Source of the DNA: a virus
Lineage: Duplodnaviria; Heunggongvirae; Uroviricota; Caudoviricetes
Length of the DNA: 64,000 nucleotides
IMG/VR virus record: IMGVR_UViG_3300023314_000004
Location: 1-64,000 of that record
Strand: one strand, 5' to 3'
Shown here piece by piece: positions 4,113 to 58,658 of the stretch. Under the pieces are notes generated by a model that was not told the DNA's origin, did no database searches, and saw only the letters and a program-made list of their open reading frames with translations. Position 1 is the first letter of the stretch. The number at the start of each line of letters is the position of its first letter. A program made the position numbers and the translations under genes.

Positions 4113-6359
4113 TTAAAACGTTGCTTCTTCTTGTTTTTCTTCTACTTGTGGCTTATATACAAGTTCATAATTTTCCAATTCATTATAATATTTCTTTCTA
4201 AATAATAACATTTGGTTAATCATTTTGTTTATTTCTCCTAATTTATCTGTTTCATAATAGCTAGGAACTTTAATATGCTGAATGAAAGAAAATGTCTCCA
4301 TATTCTTATCCACTCTATTAATTAAAGGTAGCATTTCTTCGTCATATAAATTCATTTCTTTTGCTAAATCTGCAATAGCTTTTCCAGCTTCTTGAGTGAA
4401 GCTTTCTGCATGTTCATTTATATAAGCTCTAACCTTGGTGAGATCTTCTTCTACATTTTTTAAACAAGTTTTAATTATCTCACTACTACTTCTATATATT
4501 GCATTGTATTTCCCTACTACTTTTTCAGCTAATAAAGCTGTCGCTATCCTTCTAAAAGGTTTATTATCACTCATAAATTCATTATAAAGTTTAAATTGTT
4601 GTACATGTTTTATTTTATTCCATTCTCTTACACCTACAATAGCTACTTTTTCTCTTTTTACTAAAGCAGCTAAGGATTTAGCCTCATCACGTTGATCTGG
4701 CATAAATACAATAGTTAGATGAGGAGTTTTATGTATTTCTGACAGCTTATATGTCTTTTTCTCAAATGTCTGACTATAACCAATTTCTGTTTTACGAGAA
4801 TAGGCTATTGTCACTTCATCTTCTTGTTTATTTAAAGCTGTATAATTACTTTCAATCTTTCCTCTATTTTCCTTAAGCCATTCTTTTCTTAGAGCTAACC
4901 AAGATTGAAAAGCACTAGATTTTTCTATTCCTCTATAGTCTAAGCAAAAATCTGTAATTATCTGTTTTTCAACATTTTGCCATTCCACTATACCTTTTCT
5001 CCATTGTTCTTTAGGGAAAAGACCTACAACATTTCTAATATACCAACCTAAATTTATTTTTTGATCTAAACTAACAAATAATACACCCTTCCCCACTCTT
5101 TCTTTAATGTATTCTTTTACATTACCTGCAAGATGAGGATCTACAAGTACCACTTTAGTTTTATTATGGAAAGTCATAGTGAGGCTAGTATATATTCTCT
5201 TAGTCCTCCAAACACCATTATTTCCATATTCAGCTTTGATATCAAACATACCCATAAGGTCATTAGCCTTACCTTTATACCATTGTGCAGGTCTTAATTC
5301 CATATCCTCCACTTGAAAATCCTCTACTTTTATAGAAGAATATTTTGCAAGATATTGAACATCATATCCATTATCACCTATATTTACATATTTATTGGAA
5401 GATCCTATAATGGAATATACATCCATAAATCTTACTTTATCCTTAATACTGTCGTTGTATTGTGTGATAAAATAATCTGCAACTTCTCCTATTCTTTTCT
5501 TAATTAAGTCTAAAGTTTCCCTTGAGTTGAGATAGTTTTCTCTGCTAGGTGTAGGAACAATTCCATCTTTTAATCCAAATCTTAAGGCAATACCTAAAGG
5601 AATAGGAGATATACCTAGCTTATCATAGTCTATTTCATACACTACATCTTTAAGACAAAGATGTATATTGTTATAAGAAGGGTTGGAACTATACTGAAAT
5701 AGTTCATGACGATATATTTTATTTTCCCATAATACACCATCCATAATTAGAACAACAGTGTCATAATAAGCCAGCTTCTGTTTAGCTTTCAGTTTAAACT
5801 CATTATATTCTCTCCAATCATTAATTGGCATTTCAAATAACACACCATTCTCTTCATCTGTGTCTTCTTCATATATAAGGTCGTAGTCAATAAGTTCTTC
5901 TCCCTTATAGCATAAATATTTACATTTCCAACCATCTTTTACTATTGTGAATGTAACACTACGCTTTAAAGAAACCCATGCCTTACTTCCTAAGCCAAAG
6001 TGTCCTATCATATCATCACTATTCTCCTTAGTGGAGGACAGCATAGACATAAAGAATTCCTCAAAGAAATCTTTACTCATACCAGTACCCTTATCCTCAA
6101 TACTTAAAGTGTAAGTATTATTTTCGGAATGTAGTTTAACTACAACTGGATTTTCAATAGGATCTTTACCACTTTCTAAAATACTATCTACACCATTATT
6201 GCTAAGTTCTACAATAGTAGCACTCATAGCATCTTTATATAATCCTTCTGTGAGGATGTATTGTAATTTCTGTATTTTCTGTGTATTAATAGTGGCAGTG
6301 CCAGATTTCTCCTGCCCCACCACTTCCAATACATCACTTCTTTGATTATTAATTATCAT
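4113..6359 (-). CDS. GHKL-superfamily ATPase domain protein (Hsp90/MORC/MutL-like Bergerat fold), 748 aa
   Basis: N-terminal Bergerat-fold motifs in correct order and spacing: N-box IVELSNNGVDS (E…N…D), G1 box IEDKGTGMS (DxGxGM), G2 box IGHFGLGSKA (GxFGxGxxA). About 600 further residues without recognisable motifs. Confidence 0.6.
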   Translation of the reverse strand: MIINNQRSDVLEVVGQEKSGTATINTQKIQKLQYILTEGLYKDAMSATIVELSNNGVDSILESGKDPIENPVVVKLHSENNTYTLSIEDKGTGMSKDFFEEFFMSMLSSTKENSDDMIGHFGLGSKAWVSLKRSVTFTIVKDGWKCKYLCYKGEELIDYDLIYEEDTDEENGVLFEMPINDWREYNEFKLKAKQKLAYYDTVVLIMDGVLWENKIYRHELFQYSSNPSYNNIHLCLKDVVYEIDYDKLGISPIPLGIALRFGLKDGIVPTPSRENYLNSRETLDLIKKRIGEVADYFITQYNDSIKDKVRFMDVYSIIGSSNKYVNIGDNGYDVQYLAKYSSIKVEDFQVEDMELRPAQWYKGKANDLMGMFDIKAEYGNNGVWRTKRIYTSLTMTFHNKTKVVLVDPHLAGNVKEYIKERVGKGVLFVSLDQKINLGWYIRNVVGLFPKEQWRKGIVEWQNVEKQIITDFCLDYRGIEKSSAFQSWLALRKEWLKENRGKIESNYTALNKQEDEVTIAYSRKTEIGYSQTFEKKTYKLSEIHKTPHLTIVFMPDQRDEAKSLAALVKREKVAIVGVREWNKIKHVQQFKLYNEFMSDNKPFRRIATALLAEKVVGKYNAIYRSSSEIIKTCLKNVEEDLTKVRAYINEHAESFTQEAGKAIADLAKEMNLYDEEMLPLINRVDKNMETFSFIQHIKVPSYYETDKLGEINKMINQMLLFRKKYYNELENYELVYKPQVEEKQEEATF

Positions 6360-7982: not shown

Positions 7983-8717
7983 TTAAAATGGTATATCAAG
8001 GAAATTAATTTCTCTAATTCCTTGTTGTTTTAATGTTTCATTTGTCCATGAAAATAGTTTTTCATGTTTAAATGCTCTTTGCTGATAAGAAGCAGCTACA
8101 GGATGTTCTACACTCATTTTAGGTCCTTTATATAATGTAGCATACATTTGAGCTTGTCTACCAAAGAATATCGTAGGAACCTTTAAGTCTTTTACAACAT
8201 TATTAAAGAAATAGCTCATAAATGGTTTCCAGAGTTCTTTATGTTCTCCACTTTTCCTTTCTGGTACAGTTAAAGCACTATTTAATAATAACACACCTTC
8301 CTGAGCTAGATAAGACAAATCAGTGTTTCTAGGCATCTTTAAATTAAGTCCTTCAGATAAGTCTTCTTCCATAGCATTGTATAAAAGTTTTAAGCTAGGT
8401 TGTTCTTCTTTTGTATAGGAACAACTAAAAGCTAGTCCATCAGCTATAATAGTTCCATATTTAATAGTAGGATATGGGTCCATTCCTAGCCATATTGATT
8501 TTAGAAAAGCTTTGTCACATTTCTCAAAAGCCTTAAATAAGTCTTTCCCCTCAGGGAGTATTTTACTAGTAGCTCCTTCTTCTTTTAATTTCTTATATAT
8601 TTCGTCAAATCCCCCTTGCTCGTAAAATGGTTTGAAATCTTCAGACCAGCTTCCTAGCTTAGGGGAAATTTTTGAATAGTCTATATTCATATTATTTATT
8701 TTAATGCGTTTCCGCAT
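7983..8717 (-). CDS. ung: uracil-DNA glycosylase (family 1 UDG)
   Basis: 244 aa. …SIWLGMDPYPT…GLAFSCS… matches the UDG water-activating loop (LGQDPYH…GLAFSV). …GVLLLNSALTV… matches GVLLLNTVLTV. C-terminal …EHPVAASY… matches the HPSPLS leucine-intercalation loop. Confidence 0.7.
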   Translation of the reverse strand: MRKRIKINNMNIDYSKISPKLGSWSEDFKPFYEQGGFDEIYKKLKEEGATSKILPEGKDLFKAFEKCDKAFLKSIWLGMDPYPTIKYGTIIADGLAFSCSYTKEEQPSLKLLYNAMEEDLSEGLNLKMPRNTDLSYLAQEGVLLLNSALTVPERKSGEHKELWKPFMSYFFNNVVKDLKVPTIFFGRQAQMYATLYKGPKMSVEHPVAASYQQRAFKHEKLFSWTNETLKQQGIREINFLDIPF

Positions 8718-10635
8718 ACGTCATTCCTACATTAATAGAACAACCGATAGGTACATTAAGAGGAAATCTTTCATTTACTATTTCCATTGCTTTATTAATT
8801 TTAGCCCTATCTTCCTCTATTTGATCATTTTTAACATTTAAAAGATCTTCATCATGATATTGAAATGGAATTTTAAGTCCTAAATTCCTTTGTTCCATCA
8901 ACCACATATCAAACATAAAAACAGCACTTCCCTGATTTAATGTAGAAAACTTATCTTTATCGTTCCTAAGAGAATACCAGAATTTAGAAATAGGATTTTG
9001 CAACCATCTTGTACTATCCACTTCCTTAATAAGACATTCCATTTCCACTTTAAGAATGGCATCATTTCTTTCCCAATAGATTTTTAATAGTTTTTTAGCT
9101 ACTGAGAGAGGAATATTAGCATTTCTAGAGAGAGCTTCAGCTCCTACTTTATAAGTGGCTGAGAAATTAGTCACCTTACTTTTATTTCTAATCTCTTTAA
9201 GTCTTTTATATTCACTTTTCTGTTCAGCTGTAGGAATAAATTCTATCTCTTTCTTAGAAGCTAAATCTGTTTGTTGTTCGTACCATTTATACCAATCAGC
9301 TTCTTCTTTAGTTAAAAATCCTGCTAAAATACCTAGTTCCAAATGTGCATCATATCCTGGAGTATTCATATCTTCTACATACTTAGGATCATATTTATAG
9401 ATATAATGTCTCTTAGTACGATCTTCTATATTGGATAAATCGGCCCCCATAAGCACACATCCAGGTTTAGCTATAATACATCCCCTAATTTCCTTACCAT
9501 ATTTTTTATATACAGCAGGAAGGTTTTGTATCACTCTGTGCTTTAGTCTCAAAGTATTAGTAAGTCCTCCAGCTGAAGGATAGATGATTCCATCTTTCTG
9601 GTCTTTTAAAAATCCCTTTAATATGCTTATCCTATGAGCTAAAATACTCAGTCCATTTAATAGTTCTAATCTAGGCTCTTTTTCAAAAAGTTTTTTAATA
9701 CTAATACACACTTCTCCCTGTTCTGTTTTAGAAGCTACTTGAGGGATTTGTTTAGTAGTGTTTTTCTTCTTATCCCTGACATGTTTAATATGTTCCGGAA
9801 CCCAACCTAAACTATACAACCAAGCCTTAATTTGAGCATGACTACCACTATTAGGTTCTTTATAGCCTCTTATAGTTTCAATTTTATGCTTTTCTTTAAA
9901 TTCCCCTCCTCCATGCTTTAAGGCATCCTCATAGAATAAATCTCCTTTTTGTAATATTTGTCCTGCTGGAGTGATAATAACATTTTTATATGTCTTACTA
10001 CCTTTTACAGGAATTTTAGGCATCACTTCTTCTAATTGTTTAGTCTTATCTGCTTTTTCAGTTTCCATCATTTCTAAAGAACTAGCAGCTCCTTCTACAT
10101 CTATTTGCAGTCCTTCAGCTTCTTGTTCTCTAATACAATCCATTTTAAAATGGAGATATTTAAGAAATTCTATCATAGCTTCCTCAGTGTCATAGATTTC
10201 CATTAGAAATTTCCTCTCTCTATTCCATAACATTGTATTTATCTTCACATCCTCTTCACATCTATGAACATATTCTTCCACTGTAAGAGCAGACCAATCC
10301 TTAACAACAGGTTTTTTAACACCAAATTGTTCTCCCCATTCCTCTAATCCATGAACATCTCGTTCTGGATAGAGATACCAAGAAATTGCTAAAGTGTCAA
10401 TTACAAATTTTGGACATTTGACACCTAAACATTGTTCTAAATAAGGAAAATCATATCTAACAATACTATGTCCAGCCCAAATAACATCCTCTTCTTCAAA
10501 CAATTTCTTAATTTCTTTATAATCTGTAACAGATTCAAATGTCTTAGTGTTAAGATCAAAGTATACAAGACAGTGTATATGATTTGTTTCCTTTAGAAAT
10601 CCTTTTGTTTCTATGTCAAATATTCTTACATTCAT
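8701..10635 (-). CDS. DNA polymerase, family A, with 3'-5' exonuclease domain
   Basis: 644 aa. Exo I motif FDIETKG. Pol motif A …GADLSNIEDR… (DYSQIELR-like). Motif B …KVTNFSATYKVGAEAL (K…NFGxxYG). Motif C …QYHDEDLL (HDE). Confidence 0.85.
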   Translation of the reverse strand: MNVRIFDIETKGFLKETNHIHCLVYFDLNTKTFESVTDYKEIKKLFEEEDVIWAGHSIVRYDFPYLEQCLGVKCPKFVIDTLAISWYLYPERDVHGLEEWGEQFGVKKPVVKDWSALTVEEYVHRCEEDVKINTMLWNRERKFLMEIYDTEEAMIEFLKYLHFKMDCIREQEAEGLQIDVEGAASSLEMMETEKADKTKQLEEVMPKIPVKGSKTYKNVIITPAGQILQKGDLFYEDALKHGGGEFKEKHKIETIRGYKEPNSGSHAQIKAWLYSLGWVPEHIKHVRDKKKNTTKQIPQVASKTEQGEVCISIKKLFEKEPRLELLNGLSILAHRISILKGFLKDQKDGIIYPSAGGLTNTLRLKHRVIQNLPAVYKKYGKEIRGCIIAKPGCVLMGADLSNIEDRTKRHYIYKYDPKYVEDMNTPGYDAHLELGILAGFLTKEEADWYKWYEQQTDLASKKEIEFIPTAEQKSEYKRLKEIRNKSKVTNFSATYKVGAEALSRNANIPLSVAKKLLKIYWERNDAILKVEMECLIKEVDSTRWLQNPISKFWYSLRNDKDKFSTLNQGSAVFMFDMWLMEQRNLGLKIPFQYHDEDLLNVKNDQIEEDRAKINKAMEIVNERFPLNVPIGCSINVGMTYAETH

Positions 10636-16618: not shown

Positions 16619-16821
16619 TTTAATTGATTTAATACATTTATCACTTCATCTATAGCTTCTACAGGAATTTGCATTCTTAAATAAGTGGTAGTTGAATTTG
16701 TTCTAGGATTAATTGATTCTACATCAATAACATCTCCTACTTTAGTTAAACTCAAGCCTACCTGATTTGGCCATTTAGACATTGCTACTGATTGTACTTG
16801 TCTATTATATCTTATTTCCAT
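16615..16821 (-). CDS. hypothetical protein
   Basis: 68-aa ORF between two translationally coupled neighbours. Confidence 0.35.
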   Translation of the reverse strand: MEIRYNRQVQSVAMSKWPNQVGLSLTKVGDVIDVESINPRTNSTTTYLRMQIPVEAIDEVINVLNQLK

Positions 16822-18476
16822 AATTTTTCTCTAATTTCTGTTAATGTCTGTTGATTCTCAAATTTACCATCTTCATAAATAGTCTGTAATAGTCCCTGAT
16901 TTTCTTCTTCCACTGTACATTCTTGTTTTACAGACAAATCTTCATTTACACATATGAAGCCTTTTAAAGATTTTTTAGTTCCATCTCCTGTAACAGGATC
17001 TTTATAGATGTTAAAGCCAGTTCTTATACCATCTTCTAAAGTTTCAAACCATGCTCCTTTAGCTGCATATCCGGCTGAATCTCTAGTGAGCATAATATAA
17101 GTATATGAACCTACTCCTAATACAATATTAGTAGAGGCAAATTCCTTAGCTGCTAGTCTTTCATACATTGCTATTTGTCTTTCAAGATTGATACTATCCC
17201 CATAAATAGCCCCGATGTGACTATCTAATCTTTTATAACCTTCTTTACTTTCATCTCCTCCAAATATGTCCCAAAGTAATTCTACTACACCTTTATGCCT
17301 AGGATGTAACACTACTTCACCATTAACAAGTTTTGCGTATGTATTCCCGCAAATTACAAAATCGTCACCTTCTCTAAGATGACTAGCTTTTACATCCATA
17401 GAGAGTTCTCCACAAATAATATCCACTGGATCACCTGTATCTGGACGTAATACTAATTTACCATCTCTAGCTAAAATTTCTTTTTTAAGTCTAGGAACAA
17501 TATATGTACAAGCTTTCCATGTATCAAAAGTATCACACACATAAGATAAGATACCTTTAGGAAATTTAATAAGCCAATCTCTAAGCATTAGCCATTCAGA
17601 AATAGCTAAATAATCAGGATTTTCCCTACTGCCGTCTGCCGGTAAATCAAATGAATAGTATTCTTCGATTTTATCATTTAGTAATCCAGCCTTAAGTTTA
17701 GCTTCATAATAGAAAATATTGGTGCAGCTTACACTATGTTCAGAAGCATTAACAGAATTAATACACACTTCATCCTCTGTTACATCGTAATAGTACCTAG
17801 CAGCGGATATTACATTTAAGCTATCACTACCTCTATTACTTAAAGCATGACCTAGACCTACTGCAATAGAACTAAAAGGATTACCACCTCTGCTATGAAA
17901 ATCATGGTTCATATAATCTGTAAGCCATAAATTTTCACTATCTGTCTTATTCACCCATTCTACACTATTCTTTTTAAATTGGTGTCCAATAGTAGCTGCT
18001 GTAGGCATTTGCCAAGCAAGTTTAGATATTAATGTTTCTAAAAACAACCCTAACCAAGCATATCCATCCACAGTATTAATACCTGTCATGTGAGGAATGT
18101 TAGGAGGAGTTAGTATTCCTTCAGGCAAAGCTTTAATTTTAATAGGGAGATAACCTAATTTATGTAAATCTACAAAATGTTGGGCATCATATTCCATTCC
18201 CAAGTATTTAGCCATATCCTCTCCAAATTTTTCTGCTACTTCTACAGATTGATCAAAAAACTCTTCTTGAAAAGAACTATGTAAATATCTAACAACTAAT
18301 TGTTGTCCTGCACTCATAATTTTAGTAATAGAAGGATGCATGAATTTTAAATTTCTAGGTATCCATGTCCAATATTCTTTTACAGTGGAAGGAGCTAACA
18401 TAGCTTTATGAGCAATTTTGTACCCGTCTACCTCATAAAGAGGATTGATTTTAAATGTTTTATTTAACTTTTCCAT
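16812..18476 (-). CDS. nicotinamide phosphoribosyltransferase-family enzyme (NAMPT/NadV-like; could equally be a NARP1 Namat-type enzyme)
   Basis: 554 aa. …LYEVDGYKIAHKAM… (TDSYKVTHY-like), …LVLRPDTGDPVDII… (RPDSGDP), …HIGAIYGDSI… (IQGDG). Size typical of phage NadV. Confidence 0.75.
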   Translation of the reverse strand: MEKLNKTFKINPLYEVDGYKIAHKAMLAPSTVKEYWTWIPRNLKFMHPSITKIMSAGQQLVVRYLHSSFQEEFFDQSVEVAEKFGEDMAKYLGMEYDAQHFVDLHKLGYLPIKIKALPEGILTPPNIPHMTGINTVDGYAWLGLFLETLISKLAWQMPTAATIGHQFKKNSVEWVNKTDSENLWLTDYMNHDFHSRGGNPFSSIAVGLGHALSNRGSDSLNVISAARYYYDVTEDEVCINSVNASEHSVSCTNIFYYEAKLKAGLLNDKIEEYYSFDLPADGSRENPDYLAISEWLMLRDWLIKFPKGILSYVCDTFDTWKACTYIVPRLKKEILARDGKLVLRPDTGDPVDIICGELSMDVKASHLREGDDFVICGNTYAKLVNGEVVLHPRHKGVVELLWDIFGGDESKEGYKRLDSHIGAIYGDSINLERQIAMYERLAAKEFASTNIVLGVGSYTYIMLTRDSAGYAAKGAWFETLEDGIRTGFNIYKDPVTGDGTKKSLKGFICVNEDLSVKQECTVEEENQGLLQTIYEDGKFENQQTLTEIREKLWK

Positions 18477-35333: not shown

Positions 35334-35579
35334 TTAATTTTTAAAGTTTTTACCATATACTAATTCGCTTACATAAGCTCCACAATTACCACAATACCAA
35401 TTTGGATTTGTATAAGCTTTAGACATATTTGACATAGTTCCAAATGTAAGATTTTGATTACAACAAAGACATTTTTCTTTTAGCTCTAAAGATTTTTTAA
35501 AATAATCGTCGTAATGTGTCATAAAATTTAATTTAAGTAAAAAATAAACCCTCCATAGACATAGAGGGTTTTTCATCAT
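35334..35579 (-). CDS. zinc-ribbon small protein
   Basis: 81 aa. CLCCN…(x28)…CGNCG four-Cys arrangement. Confidence 0.4.
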   Translation of the reverse strand: MMKNPLCLWRVYFLLKLNFMTHYDDYFKKSLELKEKCLCCNQNLTFGTMSNMSKAYTNPNWYCGNCGAYVSELVYGKNFKN

Positions 35580-35591
35580 CTAAAACAAAAC

Positions 35592-36446
35592 CTAATTCAA
35601 TTGTAATCTTTCTGATTTATATTTTTCAATTAATAATCTACCTTCTTCTTCATTACCTGTAGAACTAGAAGAAGCTATTGTAGGAAGAATGTTTCTTTGG
35701 AAGTTTTCTACATTAGCTGTATAAGTGGAAATAGATGTGTCTATTTGTTTCAAACTTTCATTAAATGTCTTCATTTCAGGGCTATTTTTAAGCCATGCTG
35801 AAGCATTGTCTGAAGCTTTAGACATACTTTCCATCATTTCCAGCTCTTGAGCTTTAGCTTCCAAGGATTGTTTAAGTATTTCTGTATCTGCCACTCTAAT
35901 TTCATAGAGGGAGATAAGATCAGTTTCTTGTTTTTTAATACTTTCAATCCTAGGAGTTATCATATTCACCTGTCCTTGTAACATAGCTACTTTATTTCTA
36001 GCTACTTTTAATACAGTTTCAGGTGCTGCTCTTTCTTCCAGCCTTGCAGCATTAGCTAATTCATTTGATAATGAACGAGACAATTCCTGTAATTTAGATT
36101 GATTACCATGCCTTATGGTAGAAATATTCTTAATATCATTGTTTAAAGCTTCATTCTTATTGACAAGATATTCATATCCTCTCCACATATACCATAGTTT
36201 ATCATTAGATATAAGTTTTTTAGTGAGATTCCAGGAAAGTCTTTTAGATTCTTCCCATATTCTCTCTCTAAATACTACACCTGCAACTAATGGAATAGCA
36301 AGTCCTATGGCTAAGTATAAATTAGTCATAATAGTAATTAGTGGTGGAAGGAGAAACCATAATAGTCCTAGTCCACCCACTACAATAACTCCAGCCAGAG
36401 TTTTCTGGCCAGAGGTAGTTAAATCCGGATTTTTAATTTGTAGCAT
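35592..36446 (-). CDS. membrane-anchored coiled-coil protein
   Basis: 284 aa. Two N-terminal hydrophobic helices (…LAGVIVVGGLGLLWFLLPPLITIMTNLYLAIGLAIPLVAGVVF…) then a long Q/E/L-rich coiled coil. Confidence 0.5.
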   Translation of the reverse strand: MLQIKNPDLTTSGQKTLAGVIVVGGLGLLWFLLPPLITIMTNLYLAIGLAIPLVAGVVFRERIWEESKRLSWNLTKKLISNDKLWYMWRGYEYLVNKNEALNNDIKNISTIRHGNQSKLQELSRSLSNELANAARLEERAAPETVLKVARNKVAMLQGQVNMITPRIESIKKQETDLISLYEIRVADTEILKQSLEAKAQELEMMESMSKASDNASAWLKNSPEMKTFNESLKQIDTSISTYTANVENFQRNILPTIASSSSTGNEEEGRLLIEKYKSERLQLN

Positions 36447-36451
36447 AAGTT

Positions 36452-36646
36452 TTATTTTAAAGTGTCTCCTATGTTGTATTTTCCTGAAGTGTCATAAAAT
36501 GTAGTAGTGACACCATCTGCGTCACTATACCTGTAAATGTCTAAAACTCTAGAATTATTTGAAGGAGTTTTGTCTACAATTACAAATGGCCTCTTTTTAG
36601 GGAAATTACAAGAAAATAAAAGAACACATATTAATAAATATTTCAT
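36452..36646 (-). CDS. small putative lipoprotein
   Basis: 64 aa. Signal peptide MKYLLICVLLFSC with lipobox-like LFSC. Confidence 0.4.
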   Translation of the reverse strand: MKYLLICVLLFSCNFPKKRPFVIVDKTPSNNSRVLDIYRYSDADGVTTTFYDTSGKYNIGDTLK

Positions 36647-36650
36647 AAAT

Positions 36651-37637
36651 TTAGTTTAAAGATAATAAAAATCCGATGGTAAAATTGGCATCCTCATCAA
36701 ATACGAATGTAGATGTTCCTGTTCCATCAACAATAGCTTTATAGATGTTTAATCCAGAGAGCATTTTAACATCATCTCCTGCTGAATATCTATCTGGAGA
36801 TAGGAGAGTGACAAATCTTTCTTCTCCTTGTCTAACTTTTTGAGCTAGTTTAAAAGGAATACCACCAATAATAAAACAATTTTGTCTTTTATCTGAAGGT
36901 ACTTTAGCTGCAAGAGCTTTGATTTGATTATACACATCTCCATCTATTGGTCTAGGATCAAGGGCAAAATATTTAGCTCCATAAGTTTCTAATGTTCTAA
37001 GAGCTGCACCTTCATACCATGAGATTTTAGTGTTTCCACTTCCCATATCTACAACAAAGCTGTTATTTACATAATCTTTAGGAAGAGCTGCTTTAAGAGC
37101 ATATTTACCTTCCTGATCAGCTGTTACAGCATTTACCATAAATCCTTTTTTCCTAATAGCTTGTTCTACTTTATCTATCCCTTTAGCTTTTAGTGCTCCT
37201 GAAGACATAACAAAATGAATATTTCGTCCTGCTACACCCATTTCAGCCATTTCTGCAATGTAGTCTTTGGTTTGAGTGTAAATGTCATCTGTATTAGCAA
37301 AACCTTCCCATGCCAGGGATTTACCAAAATTTTTCTTTGTAGCCTGCCAGTTTTTATCCTTATCAATATCAACAATAAAAGAATTAAAACCAGATGCTCC
37401 CACTTCAATAACACCTTTTAGTGTTCCATTAATAGGAATGTCTGTTTTAATAATAGCACGAGAGGCTGCAATATCACCTGACGGCAATGTTTCCACTGTT
37501 TTAACTCCATCAACAGCTCGTTGTTCTGTTTTTACAGGAGATACTAGAATTTCCGGATGTTTAATTGAATACACTTTAAATCCAATTAATGCTGCGATGA
37601 CTAAAATGATTAGTCCTGTTACGATACCTTTTTTCAT
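36651..37637 (-). CDS. membrane-anchored ASKHA-fold phosphatase-like protein (Ppx/GppA or CD39/apyrase-like)
   Basis: 328 aa. N-terminal TM anchor MKKGIVTGLIILVIAALIGF, then two DxGS-type phosphate-binding motifs (…IEVGASGFNSFIV… and …FVVDMGSGNTKIS…) and …CFIIGGIPF…. Resembles ACR1/ACR4 of apyrases and the Ppx/GppA P-loops. Confidence 0.4.
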   Translation of the reverse strand: MKKGIVTGLIILVIAALIGFKVYSIKHPEILVSPVKTEQRAVDGVKTVETLPSGDIAASRAIIKTDIPINGTLKGVIEVGASGFNSFIVDIDKDKNWQATKKNFGKSLAWEGFANTDDIYTQTKDYIAEMAEMGVAGRNIHFVMSSGALKAKGIDKVEQAIRKKGFMVNAVTADQEGKYALKAALPKDYVNNSFVVDMGSGNTKISWYEGAALRTLETYGAKYFALDPRPIDGDVYNQIKALAAKVPSDKRQNCFIIGGIPFKLAQKVRQGEERFVTLLSPDRYSAGDDVKMLSGLNIYKAIVDGTGTSTFVFDEDANFTIGFLLSLN

Positions 37638-37669
37638 GTTTTTTAGTTTTTGTTTTGTTTATAAAAATT

Positions 37670-38461
37670 TTAATTTTTGGCCTTAAATAATAAATCTACT
37701 ATATTTCTTTCAAGTTGAGAGTACAACATACCATCACCTTTTGTATTTCCATTAATACAAGTATATTTTCTAACATCATGGTCAAATAATAAATCAGCTA
37801 ATGCCTTCAATGCCTCTTCTTTTGTATTTATTCCTACTCTTGTAATAATTATTTCATTACCACGAAGTTTAGGTATTTTTTCATCAATAACATTACCACA
37901 TTCTTCAGGATGAGCACAATGTCTAATTCCCCCACCTAACTTATTACAACCTATACAATAATGAATTTCATCGTACTCAATCATAATGTCCACTATGGGT
38001 TCCGATTTATTATAAGCTGCTATGTATGCTTCAATAAATGCTTTACTTACTGTTGGATATAAAACAGGAGTATTTACTCTTTGCCTATTAGCCTGCATTT
38101 GGGAAAGAATTCCACGATGTAATGAAGTATCTGTAGAAGCTATTATTTTAACTAGATTGCTTAATTTTAAATCTCCACAGCCACTTTGTTTACCTTGTTC
38201 ATCGTAATTTCTACAAAAAGCATAATCTTCTTTTTTTATAATTTTTGTACAATGAATTACACCTTTACCATACTCATTATAAACCCAATCACCTTCTTTT
38301 ATCTCTTCTGTAGAGCATATATAAAGATGTTGTCCAACAGATGTATCGTTTACAATTTGTAGTTCATTTAATTTATATAGTGAATGCCCTAATTTATAAA
38401 AACATGTGCTTGATTTAGTAGGAAGCATTACTACTTTGCAAGGTTCTTTTAAACTACTCAT
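37670..38461 (-). CDS. hypothetical Cys-rich protein
   Basis: 263 aa. Multiple Cys/His (…CIGCNKLGGGIRHCAHPEECG…), suggestive of metal binding. Confidence 0.45.
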   Translation of the reverse strand: MSSLKEPCKVVMLPTKSSTCFYKLGHSLYKLNELQIVNDTSVGQHLYICSTEEIKEGDWVYNEYGKGVIHCTKIIKKEDYAFCRNYDEQGKQSGCGDLKLSNLVKIIASTDTSLHRGILSQMQANRQRVNTPVLYPTVSKAFIEAYIAAYNKSEPIVDIMIEYDEIHYCIGCNKLGGGIRHCAHPEECGNVIDEKIPKLRGNEIIITRVGINTKEEALKALADLLFDHDVRKYTCINGNTKGDGMLYSQLERNIVDLLFKAKN

Positions 38462-38487
38462 CGTATTTGTTTTTAAGAGATTAATAT

Positions 38488-38688
38488 TTAAGCTATTTGT
38501 GTTTGTTGTAATTCATTTAATGGAATGTGTAAATCCATTGTTAAATTAAGAGGAGTGGTGTAATATTGTCCTTGAGATGTAATATACATTAGTGGAACTA
38601 AGCTCCATCCTTTTAGGAAATATTCTCCTTCATTTGATTTAAATATAATGTTGTACATAATTTTACCATTTTCTTCTATGTTTATCAA
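38488..38688 (-). CDS. hypothetical small protein
   Basis: 66-aa ORF. Confidence 0.3.
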   Translation of the reverse strand: MINIEENGKIMYNIIFKSNEGEYFLKGWSLVPLMYITSQGQYYTTPLNLTMDLHIPLNELQQTQIA

Positions 38689-38965
38689 TTGCTGTTCCTA
38701 TCCAATTACCATTTGAGAGTTTGCTACCATCTTTTTTCATATAAACGTGACCGTCTCCAAACATAAATGTTGCCCAAGTATCTTTATATTCTTCAGTTTT
38801 TTCTTTAATGCCCAATAATTTTTGAAACCATGTAGGACTAAAAGTTACTTTAAATATATTTCCATCTTGCTCAATATTTGTAATTGCCATTGAGAATGGA
38901 GAGATTAGTAATATTAAAATAATTAATACTACTAAAATAATAAGAATCCATATTGCTATATTCAT
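38663..38965 (-). CDS. small membrane protein
   Basis: 100 aa. N-terminal TM MNIAIWILIILVVLIILILLISPF. Confidence 0.4.
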   Translation of the reverse strand: MNIAIWILIILVVLIILILLISPFSMAITNIEQDGNIFKVTFSPTWFQKLLGIKEKTEEYKDTWATFMFGDGHVYMKKDGSKLSNGNWIGTAIDKHRRKW

Positions 38966-39173
38966 AAAAATAAGTTTAAGGAGCTAAATTAATAGCTCCT
39001 GTTAATAAATTGTTCAGTCATGGCTTGTGCCTTCGTAAAAGACATTACTATTTAGTATGTCTTGAGATAGAATTGTTTTAATCATTGTTTTAGTTTTTGA
39101 TTAGATTGCTTATAGGGAATGAATAAAAAAGCCCTCAATTAAGAAGGCTGTATTTCTGAATAACCATTTTCTG

Positions 39174-39380
39174 TTATCTGGAACATTTTATTTGTAATTT
39201 TTTAAGTTTAATTAATAAATTAATAGTTTTGTCCATAGTTTTTAAGCTATCTTCAGGATGTTTACGATGATAAACAAGTAATTTACAACTTTGTTCATAT
39301 AATCTTTCTGCTTGTCTTTCACATTTAGTTGTTTTACAACTAATACAGAAAATAACAGCGAATAATAAGAAAATTTTCAT
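39174..39380 (-). CDS. small secreted/lipoprotein-like protein
   Basis: 68 aa. Signal peptide MKIFLLFAVIFCISC. Confidence 0.4.
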   Translation of the reverse strand: MKIFLLFAVIFCISCKTTKCERQAERLYEQSCKLLVYHRKHPEDSLKTMDKTINLLIKLKKLQIKCSR

Positions 39381-39536
39381 GATTTTAATTTTTTAGGTTT
39401 ATATATTTTTATTTTCCTTTTTCTGAATAATTTACAGGTGTGTCTAAATCTCCTTCTTCTAAAGGATCTGCTAAACTCTATAGTCCATAAAGCTTCTAAT
39501 CCTGTAAAAAATAAATAATTAGACTTAATATTCATA

Positions 39537-39905
39537 CTAATCTATTGTGGGTAATTGTTCAATTATTGGTATCACTGATTCAAAATGTCGTTTTTTATCA
39601 TGTTTATAACTGAAATCATTTTTAGTGTATAATATTCCTACAGTAGAAGGCCCTAAAAGATCTTCAAATGGTTCATATGATTTTAATTCCCCTTTAATTA
39701 CGCATTCTTCTCCATTACTAGAAATAGACCATTCAGGATGTATTTCTGCTAATACACCTAAACAACAGTGTTCTTTTTTATCATCTTCTCTCAATACGAC
39801 TTTACCTTGCCTATATTTACCAGATTTTAAGGCAGCTAGCCAATCTTCTTTTAGTTGTTTTGTTAACATAATTTTAATTTTTTGAGTAATAAAAGGTATA
39901 TTCAT
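39537..39905 (-). CDS. hypothetical protein
   Basis: 122-aa ORF. Confidence 0.45.
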   Translation of the reverse strand: MNIPFITQKIKIMLTKQLKEDWLAALKSGKYRQGKVVLREDDKKEHCCLGVLAEIHPEWSISSNGEECVIKGELKSYEPFEDLLGPSTVGILYTKNDFSYKHDKKRHFESVIPIIEQLPTID

Positions 39906-39935
39906 ATACCATGAATGTTGATGTAATCATAATTT

Positions 39936-40151
39936 TTAAAGATTATGTTTTAGTTTATATCTGGTTATAAATTCTTCGGGGAAAGAACTAGTCCAACCAC
40001 AATTAGGACATTTAAATTGTAAATCAGGAATTCTTTCAGCTCTAGGATTATTACATCCTAAAGGAGAATGAGATGGATGAGTGTTACCACAATATGGACG
40101 ATAATTAACATCATCCATTAGATTTTGTCTTACAATAGTTTCTTCAGTCAT
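39936..40151 (-). CDS. zinc-ribbon small protein
   Basis: 71 aa. CGN…C…CPNCG. Confidence 0.4.
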   Translation of the reverse strand: MTEETIVRQNLMDDVNYRPYCGNTHPSHSPLGCNNPRAERIPDLQFKCPNCGWTSSFPEEFITRYKLKHNL

Positions 40152-40336
40152 AAATTAGTATTTAAAGGGTAAAAATAAAATGACCATACTATTGCAATAG
40201 CAAGTGCGTATATTGCTAACCATACATCTAATGGCCTATTACGTATTTTATAGTCTATAAGAAAAGCAAAAAATACAAGCGTCATATAAATACATATAAT
40301 TAATAATATTTGCATATAATTAGTTTTTAACAGCAT
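40148..40336 (-). CDS. small membrane protein
   Basis: 62 aa, two hydrophobic helices. Confidence 0.35.
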   Translation of the reverse strand: MLLKTNYMQILLIICIYMTLVFFAFLIDYKIRNRPLDVWLAIYALAIAIVWSFYFYPLNTNL

Positions 40337-40572
40337 TTAGCTAAGTTGATTAAATCATTGTGTCTAACAAGATGATATTGAAATAAAATAGGTGTTTCTC
40401 CAGGTTTACTAGCTCTTTTAAAGCAGCTAATTGCATCTTGTTTAGTTTTACCTAAATATCTGCATCTTCCTGTTACTACTTCATATTGTAAAATAATATC
40501 ACCTTTTTGGTAATTATCAGTAAAATCTATCATAAATATTGTTTTAAAAATTAAATAAAAAAGAGTGTACAA
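40327..40572 (-). CDS. hypothetical protein
   Basis: 81-aa ORF. Confidence 0.4.
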   Translation of the reverse strand: MYTLFYLIFKTIFMIDFTDNYQKGDIILQYEVVTGRCRYLGKTKQDAISCFKRASKPGETPILFQYHLVRHNDLINLAKCC

Positions 40573-40589
40573 ATTACTTCATACACTCT
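40562..40589 (-). terminator. rho-independent terminator downstream of the tRNA
   Basis: Perfect 8-bp inverted repeat AGAGTGTA…TACACTCT with a 12-nt loop. On the minus strand it is followed directly by TTTTT. Confidence 0.5.
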
Positions 40590-40611
40590 TTACAAAATGA
40601 ACAGTTCTCGG

Positions 40612-40685
40612 TAGGAGTAATAGGATTTGAACCTATGACTTACATGGTATAAGCATGGTGTTCTACCAAGCTGAACTATACTCCC
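40612..40685 (-). tRNA. tRNA, anticodon UAU (tentatively tRNA-Ile reading AUA)
   Basis: Minus-strand sequence GGGAGTA-TA-GTTC-AGCTTGGTA-GAAC-A-CCATG-CTTATAC-CATGT-AAGTC-ATAGG-TTCAAAT-CCTAT-TACTCCT-A folds as a canonical cloverleaf: 7-bp acceptor stem with G1·U72, D stem GTTC/GAAC, T loop TTCAAAT, U33, purine 37. One C27·U43 mismatch. Followed by CC then G, so CCA is not fully encoded. Confidence 0.7.
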
Positions 40686-40692
40686 ATTTTAG

Positions 40693-41373
40693 TTAGATAT
40701 TGAAAATATTGCCTTGAGAAGAAAGTTTACCAAATTTGCCATCAGTTACTACAGATCCATTACTAAACATAGTTTTATAACCTGATAGGTCTAATGTACC
40801 AGCATTAATAATATCTTCACAATTATGTATATGACCAAAACACATAAGTTCAGGTTGTATATCCAACACTCTTCTTTTAAGAGATTGACAACCACACCTT
40901 TCATATACATTACCTTGAGGACTGTAAGAATGGTCTAATATTCCTTTTGGTGGTCCATGAGTTATGATAATATTTACATCCTCAGGTATTGTGGACCAAA
41001 CATTATGAGTTTTATCTCTGGCTTTATTAAAAGCCCATCCTTCCCCAAATGTAGGTGTAATAGGACTTCCCCATATTTTTAGTCCTTCTACGATAACATG
41101 ACTATTTTCTAGGTAAGTAATACCCATACTGGCTAATTCATGTTTAGTTATCATACCTCTCTCAAATGCAATATCGTGATTACCAGCTATTAATACCTTA
41201 TGCTTAATATTTAAGCTTTCTAACCAAGCAATAGCATCTCTACATTCATTATTAGAAATAACAGGAATTTTACTATTCCCTACATCTCCTGAATGTATGA
41301 GCATATCAACATCTTTAGGTATATTTAATAGTCCATGATAACCATGTGTATCTGAAATATGCCAGATTTTCAT
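40693..41373 (-). CDS. calcineurin-like metallophosphoesterase
   Basis: 226 aa. Motifs in order: DTHG (…HISDTHGY…), GD (…HSGDVGN…), GNHD (…IAGNHDI…), …ITHGPP…, …CFGHIHN…. Confidence 0.7.
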   Translation of the reverse strand: MKIWHISDTHGYHGLLNIPKDVDMLIHSGDVGNSKIPVISNNECRDAIAWLESLNIKHKVLIAGNHDIAFERGMITKHELASMGITYLENSHVIVEGLKIWGSPITPTFGEGWAFNKARDKTHNVWSTIPEDVNIIITHGPPKGILDHSYSPQGNVYERCGCQSLKRRVLDIQPELMCFGHIHNCEDIINAGTLDLSGYKTMFSNGSVVTDGKFGKLSSQGNIFNI

Positions 41374-41708
41374 AAGTTATAGTTTAATTTTAAATAATTA
41401 ATAAGGAGAGTGTCATTCTCTAACATTTGTTTATCTAATGGCTTACCTATTAGATGATTACGAATGTCAGTTTTAATAAACAATCTACCATTAAATACAC
41501 CTATTAATGATCCTTGAGGTCCATAGACAGGTTTATCTCCTGTTAATTTAACAGTATTTGGATAACAGATAGTACATTTTAAATTACCACATGTCCATTT
41601 TTTAATTATTAATGGTTTATGAGTGTGACAATTAGGTATAATACAATTTGTGTCTTGACCTATTCCTACTAATGGTAGAAATAGCATAAGAGTTAGTAAA
41701 TATTTCAT
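41370..41708 (-). CDS. small secreted protein
   Basis: 112 aa. Signal peptide MKYLLTLMLFLPLVGIGQ, several Cys. Confidence 0.45.
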   Translation of the reverse strand: MKYLLTLMLFLPLVGIGQDTNCIIPNCHTHKPLIIKKWTCGNLKCTICYPNTVKLTGDKPVYGPQGSLIGVFNGRLFIKTDIRNHLIGKPLDKQMLENDTLLINYLKLNYNL

Positions 41709-42759: not shown

Positions 42760-43260
42760 TTAAATGTTAGAAAATTTAAATAATAATGGATTAATTCTAA
42801 TTACAGGAACTTGTTGTTTTTTAATATGAAAGGCATAATCATAGCAATTCTTAGTTCCTCCTGCTGATCCATCCCAAATAGCTAATAGAATATCACAATT
42901 GTCTGACATCCAGACATTACGAGCTTGCATACAACTATTAGTGTATGGTTTCTCACTAACATAATATTTAGTACATAGGGGATGATTAACTATTCTATTA
43001 TACCTATCCTGAGACTTTTTAGGCCACATTTTCTCTTGGTCTTTACAAGGAATGGCAGCTATAAATGGAATGTTATTAATAATAGCCATTTCAGCCCATA
43101 ACATATCCACTCCTAAAGCCATACCTGTAATAATTTGTGTAGGTTTATGGTCTTTAATTACTTCAGCCATTCTATCTCTAATGGCATCAGAATATTTACC
43201 TATTCCATCATATTCATTACCAAGTTTGTTAGGTCTATGACCTGTTACAGCTATTTTCAT
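42760..43260 (-). CDS. YpsA/DUF1273-like SLOG-superfamily (SMF/DprA-LOG) nucleotide-binding protein
   Basis: 166 aa. N-terminus MKIAVTGHRPNKLG… and …IITGMALGVDMLWAEMAI… fit the YpsA-type SLOG Rossmann pattern (AVTGhRP…G…G.D). Confidence 0.45.
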   Translation of the reverse strand: MKIAVTGHRPNKLGNEYDGIGKYSDAIRDRMAEVIKDHKPTQIITGMALGVDMLWAEMAIINNIPFIAAIPCKDQEKMWPKKSQDRYNRIVNHPLCTKYYVSEKPYTNSCMQARNVWMSDNCDILLAIWDGSAGGTKNCYDYAFHIKKQQVPVIRINPLLFKFSNI

Positions 43261-57104: not shown

Positions 57105-58658
57105 ATGCCTTTACAGACAATACCAGGATTTACCGGCTTAACCTATGCAAGAGTTTCTTCTTTTGATAAGAGGGCAATTGGTAAATTGACAGACTCTAAT
57201 CACTTAGAGAGTTTGCAGCACGACAATGAGCCTACTCCTTATGATAAGAGGGTAATTGACATTTATACTCAAAGCTCATTGTACTCCAATGACTTTTTGG
57301 ATATGATCAATAAGTCTAAGCCATACTTCTTGGATGGTATGACCGACACTTGGAAATGGGATATTGAAAAACCATTCCAGTTTCCTAAATTGATTGATGT
57401 TCCAGCATCCACTACTAGTCAATCTCAGGTAGGTATTGACAATAAAGTATTTGAATTGGTAATAGACACTATTGTTTCTAAAAACATGGTGTTTGCTATT
57501 GGTCATCAAATTTATGGTCCACAAGTAGTTGTTGTTAACGATCCTACACCTTACGGTGCTGGTTGGTTGCATCAGGTTACTTTGATGGCTGCTAACACAC
57601 TCACTGAATTCGTAGCTCCACAATATTTACAACAGGGTTTGGATATTTTCATCCTTGATGTTATGTTAGGTGAGTTTGATCAGGATTTAGGTGGTTTGCA
57701 GAAAATGGGTGATCGTATCACAATGTTTGAAACATTAGGTACAGGCTATGGTTATGAGCACACTATCACTGCATGGGCTGATGATAAAATCCTTAAAGAT
57801 GCTAATGGTCGTCCTTTAGACTTGTTAGTATATATGAAAGGTAGACGTAATGAACTTCCTACTTCAACATCTAATGTTAAATGGGAACCCTTCATTGAGT
57901 TCTGGATGCGTAAGACAATGCTTGAAACGAAAGTTAAGCGTATGATCTGGAGCAAACCTGGTATCTCTCGTACTAATGGTGCTAAACAAGAATTGAAAAT
58001 CAAATCTGCTGGTATCTATTACAGAATGCGTAATTCTGGTAACTATGTACCTTACAATCGTGGTGAGTTCTCTGTGAGCTTGTTACGTTCAGTATTTGGT
58101 GATTTGTTCTACCGTAGAGTGGATGTTAAGGATAGGCGTGTTAAAATGTACACGAACGAATCTGGATTTGATGCATTCCAACAGGCTATTAAAGAAGATG
58201 CATTTGATTCTGGTCTTACATTCAATGTAGGAGACAATGATAAGTTTGTTCAAGGTGCAGGTCAGAACTTAGTATTGAATTTTGCCTTCAACTCTGTAAT
58301 TACAAGAGAAACTGGTAAAATTGAATTGGTTCACTTGAAAGAACTCGATTTACCACAAGGTAGCTTGGAGTTTGGTCAGAACAAAAAATCCACTCCTATT
58401 TTCATGGTGTTTGATGTTAGTCCTACTTCTGATGGTAGCTTGATTAACAACATTCGTGAAGTGAGGAGAGCTAATACACCTTCTATGCAATGGGGCTATA
58501 TTGATGGTCGTAGGAGTCACTTAGGTGCTATGGCTTCTCAAGGTCATAATGCAGCTACTAAATTCCCAGGCTATACAGTATGGATGGAAGATAGGTCTGA
58601 TGTTTTCATCGAAGATATGTCTCGTACTGTTCTCATAGAAGAAATTCCACAATTCTAA
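57105..58658 (+). CDS. putative major capsid protein
   Basis: 517 aa. Canonical position after protease and scaffold. Followed by a strong inverted repeat. Confidence 0.5.
   Translation: MPLQTIPGFTGLTYARVSSFDKRAIGKLTDSNHLESLQHDNEPTPYDKRVIDIYTQSSLYSNDFLDMINKSKPYFLDGMTDTWKWDIEKPFQFPKLIDVPASTTSQSQVGIDNKVFELVIDTIVSKNMVFAIGHQIYGPQVVVVNDPTPYGAGWLHQVTLMAANTLTEFVAPQYLQQGLDIFILDVMLGEFDQDLGGLQKMGDRITMFETLGTGYGYEHTITAWADDKILKDANGRPLDLLVYMKGRRNELPTSTSNVKWEPFIEFWMRKTMLETKVKRMIWSKPGISRTNGAKQELKIKSAGIYYRMRNSGNYVPYNRGEFSVSLLRSVFGDLFYRRVDVKDRRVKMYTNESGFDAFQQAIKEDAFDSGLTFNVGDNDKFVQGAGQNLVLNFAFNSVITRETGKIELVHLKELDLPQGSLEFGQNKKSTPIFMVFDVSPTSDGSLINNIREVRRANTPSMQWGYIDGRRSHLGAMASQGHNAATKFPGYTVWMEDRSDVFIEDMSRTVLIEEIPQF

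Follow-up and report, generated by a model that had tools for sequence, protein, structure and literature searches.

A membrane-anchored Ppx/GppA-NTPDase-like protein of a crAss-like phage and its possible role in envelope signalling

The window studied here is a stretch of 64,000 nucleotides (positions 1 to 64,000 of the IMG/VR record IMGVR_UViG_3300023314_000004) and forms part of a 122,055-bp metagenomic contig of a crAss-like phage. It carries a gene for a 328-aa protein with an N-terminal membrane anchor and a two-lobed domain of the ASKHA fold, which is called the ASKHA protein below. An earlier note, made from the DNA sequence alone, had taken the product for a phosphatase-like protein related to apyrases or Ppx/GppA. 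We favour, with moderate confidence, the reading that it is a periplasmic module that binds or hydrolyses a phosphoanhydride and serves as the input of a membrane signalling or stress complex, so that the phage would use it to manipulate envelope signalling. The reading builds on the fold of the protein, its link to the Ppx/GppA family, its conserved motifs, the outward-facing architectures of its relatives, the order of the neighbouring genes and the single clade formed by the phage copies. What is new is an extracytoplasmic branch of a known superfamily, its occurrence in phages and the gene module in which it is found.

Fold, family and active site of the ASKHA protein

The gene and the motifs of its product are as follows.

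36651..37637 (minus strand, ATG start): 328-aa membrane-anchored Ppx/GppA-NTPDase-like (ASKHA) protein
37560..37637 (minus strand): N-terminal signal-anchor transmembrane (TM) helix, codons 1-26, MKKGIVTGLIILVIAALIGFKVYSIK, seen in hydropathy and as helix 3-26 of the AlphaFold2 model
Motifs: EVGASGFN at residues 78-85, SSGALK at 145-150, QEGK at 175-178
Motifs of the C-terminal half: DMGSGNTK at residues 197-204, IIGGIP at 256-261, FDEDANFTIG at 313-322

In a set of 5.8 billion proteins the ASKHA protein had 2,626 homologs at E ≤ 1e-3, nearly all of them 320-335 aa long, and an exhaustive search with a hidden Markov model (HMM) yielded 374 clusters at 50% identity. Because of these homologs and clusters we regard the open reading frame (ORF) as a real gene and not a chance ORF; coordinates, strand and start codon agree with those first given for it. 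The single N-terminal TM helix was recovered as well. The protein has one hydrophobic segment (residues 4-22, mean Kyte-Doolittle value 2.48), and the AlphaFold2 model, built from 49 homologs, shows a helix at residues 3-26, a disordered linker at about 27-70 and a two-lobed alpha/beta domain at 72-328. The confidence of the model is high as a whole (predicted local distance difference test, pLDDT, 89.4; predicted template modelling score, pTM, 0.79), with pLDDT below 50 at residues 35-55 of the linker. Both phosphate-binding loops of the DxGS type that had been pointed out, GVIEVGASGFNSFIV (residues 75-89) and VVDMGSGNTKIS (residues 195-206), are present and are invariant in about 200 homologs.

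The domain consists of two RNase-H-like lobes with a cleft, as in the phosphatase branch of the ASKHA superfamily (Ppx/GppA and GDA1_CD39). Ppx/GppA and NTPDase folds were its best matches in fold comparison, the NTPDases scoring lower than PPX. A phmmer search against the sequences of the PDB found Ppx/GppA of Aquifex (E ~4e-3) through the stretch EQEGxYA...VVDxGxGxT. Over phmmer and hmmsearch together the matches to the PPX/GppA proteins of Aquifex and Helicobacter pylori ranged from E 4e-4 to 5e-3 and covered motifs 1-4, and a broader profile aligned residues 69-211 with residues 16-166 of the H. pylori protein (E 3.6e-4). At the fold level the Ppx/GppA-like assignment was thus confirmed, the P-loop motifs aligning with solved PPX/GppA structures. 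In the Pfam scan the phage protein itself matched neither of the two profiles proposed earlier as a check, Ppx-GppA and GDA1_CD39: there was no match to PF02541 even at E ≤ 10 and none to PF01150. The link of the phage protein to Pfam Ppx-GppA is transitive, as judged from the scores of its relatives. The full-length family member P0160 (E 4e-89 to the family profile) reaches 31.7 bits, above the PF02541 gathering threshold of 27 bits, and the distant secreted tandem-domain members P0263 (62.5 bits), P0264 (56.1 bits) and P0268 (49.5 bits) also pass it.

Neither of the outcomes that the earlier note had set against its own reading was seen, since the motifs do align and the protein lies outside the actin-like branch. 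That it could be an actin-like, ParM, FtsA or PilM-type ATPase or scaffold, or a sugar or polyphosphate kinase, is hardly credible, the domain being structurally nearer to PPX and NTPDase than to kinases, actins and Hsp70.

As far as sequence and predicted fold can tell, the ASKHA protein belongs to a divergent branch of the Ppx/GppA-NTPDase superfamily that is extracytoplasmic and had not been annotated before. The known Ppx/GppA proteins (PF02541; Aquifex 1T6C/1T6D, H. pylori 6PC0, Deinococcus radiodurans 8JGO/8JGU) are cytoplasmic, whereas the phage protein is membrane-anchored and read as outward-facing, and its sequence identity to them is 10-16%. Motif 1 reads ExGASG in the phage family instead of DxGSNS, and motif 4 reads DxGSGNTK instead of DxGGGSTE, a change of Glu to Lys. 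The C-terminal motif FDWDANFxxG is specific to the ASKHA family, and the operon partners of the gene are coiled-coil membrane proteins and not ppk. From the GDA1/CD39 NTPDases, which include the secreted Lpg1905 of Legionella (4BR9), the protein is set apart by a structural score below that of PPX, by the missing Pfam GDA1_CD39 match and by its much smaller size. Motifs resembling the apyrase conserved regions (ACR) occur in the right order, with the Gln of ACR4 (DLGGxSxQ) being Lys in the family, while the ecto-location is one that we only infer. NTPDases carry conserved disulfides; no conserved Cys pairs are visible in the ASKHA family alignment.

The conserved core of the exopolyphosphatase DrPPX comprises D7 (which binds Mg2+), R86, E114, D136 and E143 together with an REG helix motif, and E114, D136 and E143 hold a water molecule (PMC11234463). 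This core was mapped onto the phage protein through the HMM alignment to 6pc0:

DrPPX D7: phage E78, a conservative change
DrPPX T82 and neighbours: phage S145/S146, kept in kind
DrPPX R86: phage K150, about one position off
DrPPX E114: phage E176, kept
DrPPX D136: phage D197, kept
DrPPX G139-G140-S141: phage S200-G201-N202, an altered loop
DrPPX E143: phage K204, a charge reversal

Three of the four acidic residues of PPX are therefore kept (E78, E176 and D197) and the fourth is an invariant lysine, K204. With respect to the five-residue core of DrPPX, three residues are kept in kind and the change from Glu to Lys is a real departure. In the sequence of 6pc1, compared with that of 6pc0, the Glu equivalent to DrPPX E143 is an Ala.

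The mapped residues are conserved without exception in the 125 copies of the phage clade (117+8) and are essentially invariant in 81 bacterial copies, K150 being Arg in one of them. Among 150 divergent representatives the best-kept positions were E176 (117/120), D197 (115/119) and K204 (105/119, with a further 8 Arg). The family as a whole can be recognised by the signature ExGASGFN, SSGxxK, QE[GA], DxGSGNTK, IIGGxP and FDWDANFxxG. Conservation as strict as this argues for a functional phosphate and metal site, and the cleft is predicted to keep a metal- and phosphate-binding constellation made up of E78, S145/S146, K150, E176, D197, N202 and K204. Any phosphatase activity of the ASKHA protein is putative.

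Topology, bacterial operon and phage gene pair

Which way the domain faces was read from the architectures of relatives. P0129, P0143 and P0166 begin with a Hanks-type kinase (about residues 1-295), and just one TM segment separates it from the ASKHA domain that comes next. A Ser/Thr kinase domain must be cytoplasmic, so the ASKHA domain, which lies on the same chain one TM segment away, is outside the membrane. P0174 is composed of a caspase, a TM segment and the ASKHA domain, and P0131 and P0263 start with a signal peptide. These architectures support the extracytoplasmic location assumed in the earlier note; the phage protein itself is most plausibly periplasmic, held by a type-II signal anchor and a linker of about 45 residues. 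The cytoplasmic location of Ppx/GppA is accordingly not found in this family, which has a signal anchor here and the domain outside the membrane in the relatives. The same orientation excludes the further suggestion that the phage protein modulates (p)ppGpp or polyphosphate pools, because these pools are cytoplasmic and the ASKHA domain would face the periplasm.

In its position the ASKHA domain of the relatives resembles the ectodomains of receptor kinases, such as PASTA in PknB/PrkC, with the order kinase, TM segment, domain; as with Hanks-type receptor kinases, there is also a tie to signalling genes, the stand-alone form adjoining kinase, PP2C and VWA genes in some genomes. Its fold is unrelated to PASTA-type ectodomains, however, and it is enzyme-derived with active-site residues kept. 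Furthermore the phage version and most bacterial versions stand alone and are paired with a coiled-coil membrane protein rather than with a kinase. Fusions among P0129, P0143, P0166, P0154, P0174, P0186, P0131 and P0147 involve Hanks-type kinases, caspase (Peptidase_C14) domains, EAD11 (weak) and DUF6799; the EAD11 (effector-associated) domain is a weak N-terminal match in one family member. P0263 is a secreted tandem duplication of the ASKHA domain.

At least 528 matching stretches were found among bacterial species genomes, and for the best 80 of them the ORFs of the loci were clustered. All 80 are from Bacteroidota, including Sphingobacterium, Pedobacter, Chitinophaga, Taibaiella, Hymenobacter, Spirosoma/Larkinella and Saprospiraceae. 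About 70 of the 80 loci share one operon order, in which c1 is followed by c2 or c12 and then by the ASKHA gene.

c1: a soluble coiled-coil protein of about 235 aa whose N-terminus is of low complexity
c2 or c12: a protein of about 340-370 aa that combines two TM segments with a long coiled coil

The phage ASKHA gene probably derives from this conserved Bacteroidota operon, an origin that the earlier note had missed. Whether the coiled-coil partners are TelA- or PspA-like was considered and rejected, as Pfam gave no support.

A minority of the loci connect the ASKHA gene with another system. According to PMC10542128, which cites Anantharaman et al. 2012, the TerY-P triad is composed of a TerY-like VWA protein, a PP2C phosphatase and a Ser/Thr kinase with a zinc ribbon, and such triads have been reported to act in defence contexts. 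The loci L007, L031, L034 and L041 contain genes for a VWA protein, PP2C and a Ser/Thr kinase with a C-terminal CxxC...CxxC ribbon, directly followed in the same operon by the ASKHA gene and then by c1; in L002 the triad is adjacent to the ASKHA gene and divergent. The genomes with an ASKHA gene embedded in this way are of the Hymenobacter and Segetibacter type (L007 1840-7625; L031, L034, L041, L002). The triad is missing from the phage window and from most bacterial loci, and no description of an ASKHA domain as a TerY-P partner was found in the literature. In the PADLOC search the ASKHA protein had no match and its partners had only noise-level ones; the TerY-P-type kinase matched the PD-T4-6 and Mad kinase models weakly. 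The use of the domain as ectodomain of receptor kinases and caspases, together with the TerY-P adjacency, had escaped the earlier note and points to sensing or signalling and not to simple scavenging.

In the phage the ASKHA gene is followed on the minus strand by these elements.

36452..36646 (minus strand): 64-aa lipoprotein-like ORF, MKYLLICVLLFSC..., between the ASKHA gene and the partner gene
35592..36446 (minus strand): conserved 284-aa partner (cluster c15) with two TM segments forming a hairpin at about residues 19-60
35546..35571 (minus strand): terminator-like hairpin (11-bp stem, T-run) directly after the 284-aa gene, from a consensus scan only

The three reading frames are separated by spacers of 4-5 nt, and the hairpin is the likely end of their common transcription unit. 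C-terminal to its TM hairpin the 284-aa protein is predicted to form a cytoplasmic three-helix antiparallel coiled-coil bundle. Eight IMG/VR contigs (36-157 kb) carry the ASKHA gene, and in six of these eight loci, as in the window, a c15 gene (about 285 aa) comes after it, either directly or past one small variable ORF. All 35 detectable homologs of the c15 partner are about 285 aa long, and several lie on contigs that match ASKHA-hit contigs in size. Judged from this synteny the ASKHA gene is one half of a conserved module, the other half being the partner two genes downstream, which was likewise overlooked in the earlier note.

Profile-profile comparison with hhalign connected c15 with the bacterial c12 (93.6% probability, E 2e-7, 251 collinear columns) and c12 with c2 (90%). 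The 284-aa phage protein is thus a probable remote homolog of the 2-TM coiled-coil gene of the bacterial operon. The window ORFs included no c1-like gene and no TerY-P gene. One HMM match of c1 at 2477-2707 of the window (E 1e-4, 16.7 bits) was taken as coiled-coil noise.

At the position of the 64-aa ORF related phages have an unrelated 78-aa protein with two TM segments, a 78-aa acidic protein, or nothing. The ORF is therefore probably a variable addition to the transcription unit of the two conserved genes, and the site between the ASKHA and partner genes looks like a hotspot for the insertion of small genes. In two IMG/VR phages (L085/L089, 7101-8272) two small TM proteins and a lipoprotein-like protein of 263 aa (cluster 137) take the place of the usual partner, an arrangement which suggests alternative partners.

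Since a membrane protein, a lipoprotein and a TM coiled-coil protein are tightly packed here, with many small membrane or secreted ORFs around them, one might think of a cassette for lysis or superinfection exclusion, in which the product of 36452-36646 would be like an o-spanin, that of 35592-36446 like an i-spanin and the ASKHA protein an accessory envelope factor. We consider this very unlikely. An i-spanin needs a single N-terminal TM segment and has its coiled coil in the periplasm, whereas the 284-aa protein has two TM segments arranged as a hairpin, so that its bundle is expected to be cytoplasmic. Moreover, the lipoprotein is not conserved in related phages, no endolysin or holin gene is adjacent, and a homologous pair occurs in ordinary chromosomal operons of Bacteroidota.

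Proposed role and the main alternative

According to the signalling reading introduced above, the ASKHA domain would most likely bind a periplasmic phosphoanhydride, for instance a nucleoside di- or triphosphate, a short polyphosphate or a pyrophosphate-linked compound, and would probably turn it over. Its functional partner would be the 284-aa 2-TM coiled-coil protein, with the TM helices of the two probably making the contact, and in this way a cytoplasmic BAR/PspA-like scaffold would respond to the state of the periplasmic ligand. The Bacteroidota module would be a vertically inherited three-gene envelope operon, connected in some lineages with signalling through Ser/Thr kinases, PP2C, VWA proteins or caspases. 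An old crAss-like lineage may have captured the sensor and its membrane partner, and the phage pair would probably override, mimic or exploit an envelope signalling or stress pathway of the host during infection.

A bolder version of this proposal, which we regard as speculative and rather unlikely, makes the outward-facing Ppx-like domain a new class of enzyme-derived extracytoplasmic receptor that senses periplasmic or extracellular phosphoanhydrides. The signal could for example be nucleotides or polyphosphate from damaged or lysed neighbours, or from the entry of phage DNA, and in Bacteroidota it would be relayed to BAR/PspA-like scaffolds, TerY-P triads, Ser/Thr kinases or caspases; the phage pair would blind this alarm or use it to time infection.

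Several observations weigh against the signalling reading. The ASKHA protein was matched by no Pfam, NCBIfam, PHROG or PADLOC model. The water-coordinating Glu of PPX is replaced by the invariant K204 and the Asp of motif 1 by Glu, so canonical PPX chemistry may be altered or lost in the family; because of the Glu-to-Lys swap PPX-type hydrolysis is not to be assumed. The REG motif (LREG), which in Ppx/GppA opens the helix after the catalytic domain, is presumably replaced by TIG (NFTIG), a comparison made by eye, the profile alignments ending before the C-terminus. The copy in the window also has a rare substitution in a motif that is otherwise invariant: codon 315 (36693-36695) specifies Glu (FDEDANF), where 112 of 117 phage copies and all 81 bacterial copies have Trp (FDWDANF). 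The charges flanking the TM helix are nearly symmetric (+2/0 versus +2/-1), and it is because of this weak bias that the orientation of the phage protein was read from the architectures of its relatives. Finally, the homology between c15 and c12 was detected only by profile-profile comparison, in which coiled-coil and TM composition can inflate the scores; pairwise BLAST of the 284-aa partner against the bacterial c2 and c12 proteins was not significant, and a plain HMM search with c2 and c12 found none of the window ORFs.

The main rival is the plain ecto-phosphohydrolase that the earlier note had in mind, an enzyme which degrades periplasmic or extracellular nucleotides or polyphosphate for scavenging or for the removal of a signal and has no signalling role itself. 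We give it a real but clearly smaller chance. Ppx/GppA and NTPDase are after all the best fold matches, and the extracytoplasmic site is that of the NTPDases. The catalytic-base Glu (E176) and the metal-site Asp (D197) are kept and all loop residues are invariant; the 'catalytic' residues are strict even in the copies fused to kinases, arguing for selection on chemistry beyond binding. Against an ordinary hydrolase, however, stand the changes of DrPPX E143 to K204 and of D7 to E78. The use as ectodomain of receptor kinases and caspases, and the operon with TerY-P and coiled-coil genes, are typical of sensors, not of scavengers, and no transporter or nucleotidase genes were linked in the loci compared.

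If the signalling reading is true, it would define an unannotated and widespread family, with at least 528 bacterial stretches (the 80 examined all being from Bacteroidota) and a whole crAss-like clade, and the Ppx/GppA-NTPDase superfamily would then reach into viruses and into the periplasm of bacteria. A phosphoanhydride-binding ectodomain would be tied to kinase, caspase and TerY-P signalling, which would suggest that a cue outside the cell or in the periplasm, a nucleotide or polyphosphate, is monitored by Bacteroidota. To our knowledge almost all accessory genes of crAss-like phages are of unknown function, and these phages would gain a module of two genes that is tractable and clearly matched in the host. 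The soluble ASKHA domain is small, confidently modelled and should be easily expressed.

Evolution and genomic setting of the phage gene

In a neighbour-joining tree based on the catalytic domain all phage copies (the window, the IMG/VR loci and the top metagenomic hits on contigs of 80-180 kb) were separated from all bacterial copies and formed a single clade, sister to the latter. Four of the top metagenomic hits were identical to IMG/VR proteins. The phage clade is deep, its members having about 47-67% identity to the window copy, and the bacterial clade largely tracks taxonomy. This topology agrees with a single early capture, after which the phage lineage kept the gene for a long time and the hosts passed it on vertically. 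With its deep single phage clade and a bacterial part that follows taxonomy, the tree does not look like that of a sporadic moron or of a mobile defence island.

The tree also bears on the possibility that the phage pair is a decoy or antagonist of an envelope surveillance sensor of the host, in which sensor and anchor would tie up the ligand or disable the host complex and so keep the infection from being reported. Such a role would suit the long retention of the gene in the phage clade, the retention of just two of the three host operon genes, the fusions to Ser/Thr kinase, caspase and (weakly) EAD11, and the adjacency to TerY-P triads, for which PMC10542128 reports defence contexts. We nevertheless think it quite unlikely. 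Unlike mobile defence islands the bacterial operon looks vertical and single-copy, with a tree that follows taxonomy; there was no PADLOC match, and no more than about 5 of the 80 loci are linked to TerY-P.

The protein had been called unusual for a phage, and this proved correct. A tblastn search against 50,697 GenBank phage records gave no homolog, no PHROG matched, and a fold search of BFVD returned only generic matches to an RNase-H-like half-domain (TM-score ≤ 0.36) and no comparable fold. No description of a phage-encoded Ppx, apyrase or NTPDase, of a crAss exopolyphosphatase or of an extracytoplasmic ASKHA sensor domain was found in the literature.

The source phage represents a deep and unplaced crAss-like lineage. 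The window encodes a Crassvirus-type major capsid protein at 57105-58658 (plus strand) and a family A DNA polymerase at 8701-10635, has about 30% GC and shows a switch of strand and of GC skew near 45-46 kb. The capsid protein had a single match among GenBank phages, Leptolyngbya phage Lbo-JY46, with just 24% identity, and a megablast search of 30-45 kb of the window against GenBank phages gave no nucleotide match. A scan for sigma-70 promoters showed no enrichment (17 found, 18.7 expected), using a consensus that is unfit for promoters of the Bacteroidota type.

The ASKHA gene had been placed in a run of membrane, secreted and lipoprotein ORFs extending over 35592-41708. This is true only in part: six such ORFs are present, namely the two downstream of the ASKHA gene described above and four in the list below, and soluble-looking ORFs are interspersed. 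The other ORFs of the region are:

37670-38461, 39537-39905 and 39936-40151: soluble-looking ORFs
38663-38965: TM ORF
39174-39380: lipoprotein-like ORF
40148-40336: ORF with two TM segments
40693-41373 (minus strand): soluble-looking calcineurin-like metallophosphoesterase (Pfam Metallophos, E 1.7e-12)
41370-41708: ORF with a signal peptide

In the precomputed annotation of the source contig the 122-aa ORF at 39537-39905 (minus strand) is assigned to Pfam DUF8296. Directly downstream of the Metallophos gene lies a tRNA-Ile gene with the anticodon TAT (40610-40685, minus strand); with it the phage carries a tRNA for AUA, a rare codon, in a genome of 30% GC. A YpsA/SLOG-DprA-like protein is encoded at 42760-43260 (minus strand, E 2e-11) in the same accessory region. 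SLOG domains bind nucleotides, and with its Metallophos and SLOG genes the accessory region may have further nucleotide-related functions. In the replication arm the window encodes a 748-aa GHKL-type ATPase (HATPase_c_3) at 4113-6359 (minus strand) and an NAPRTase-like protein of NAD salvage at 16812-18476 (minus strand, E 1.5e-15).

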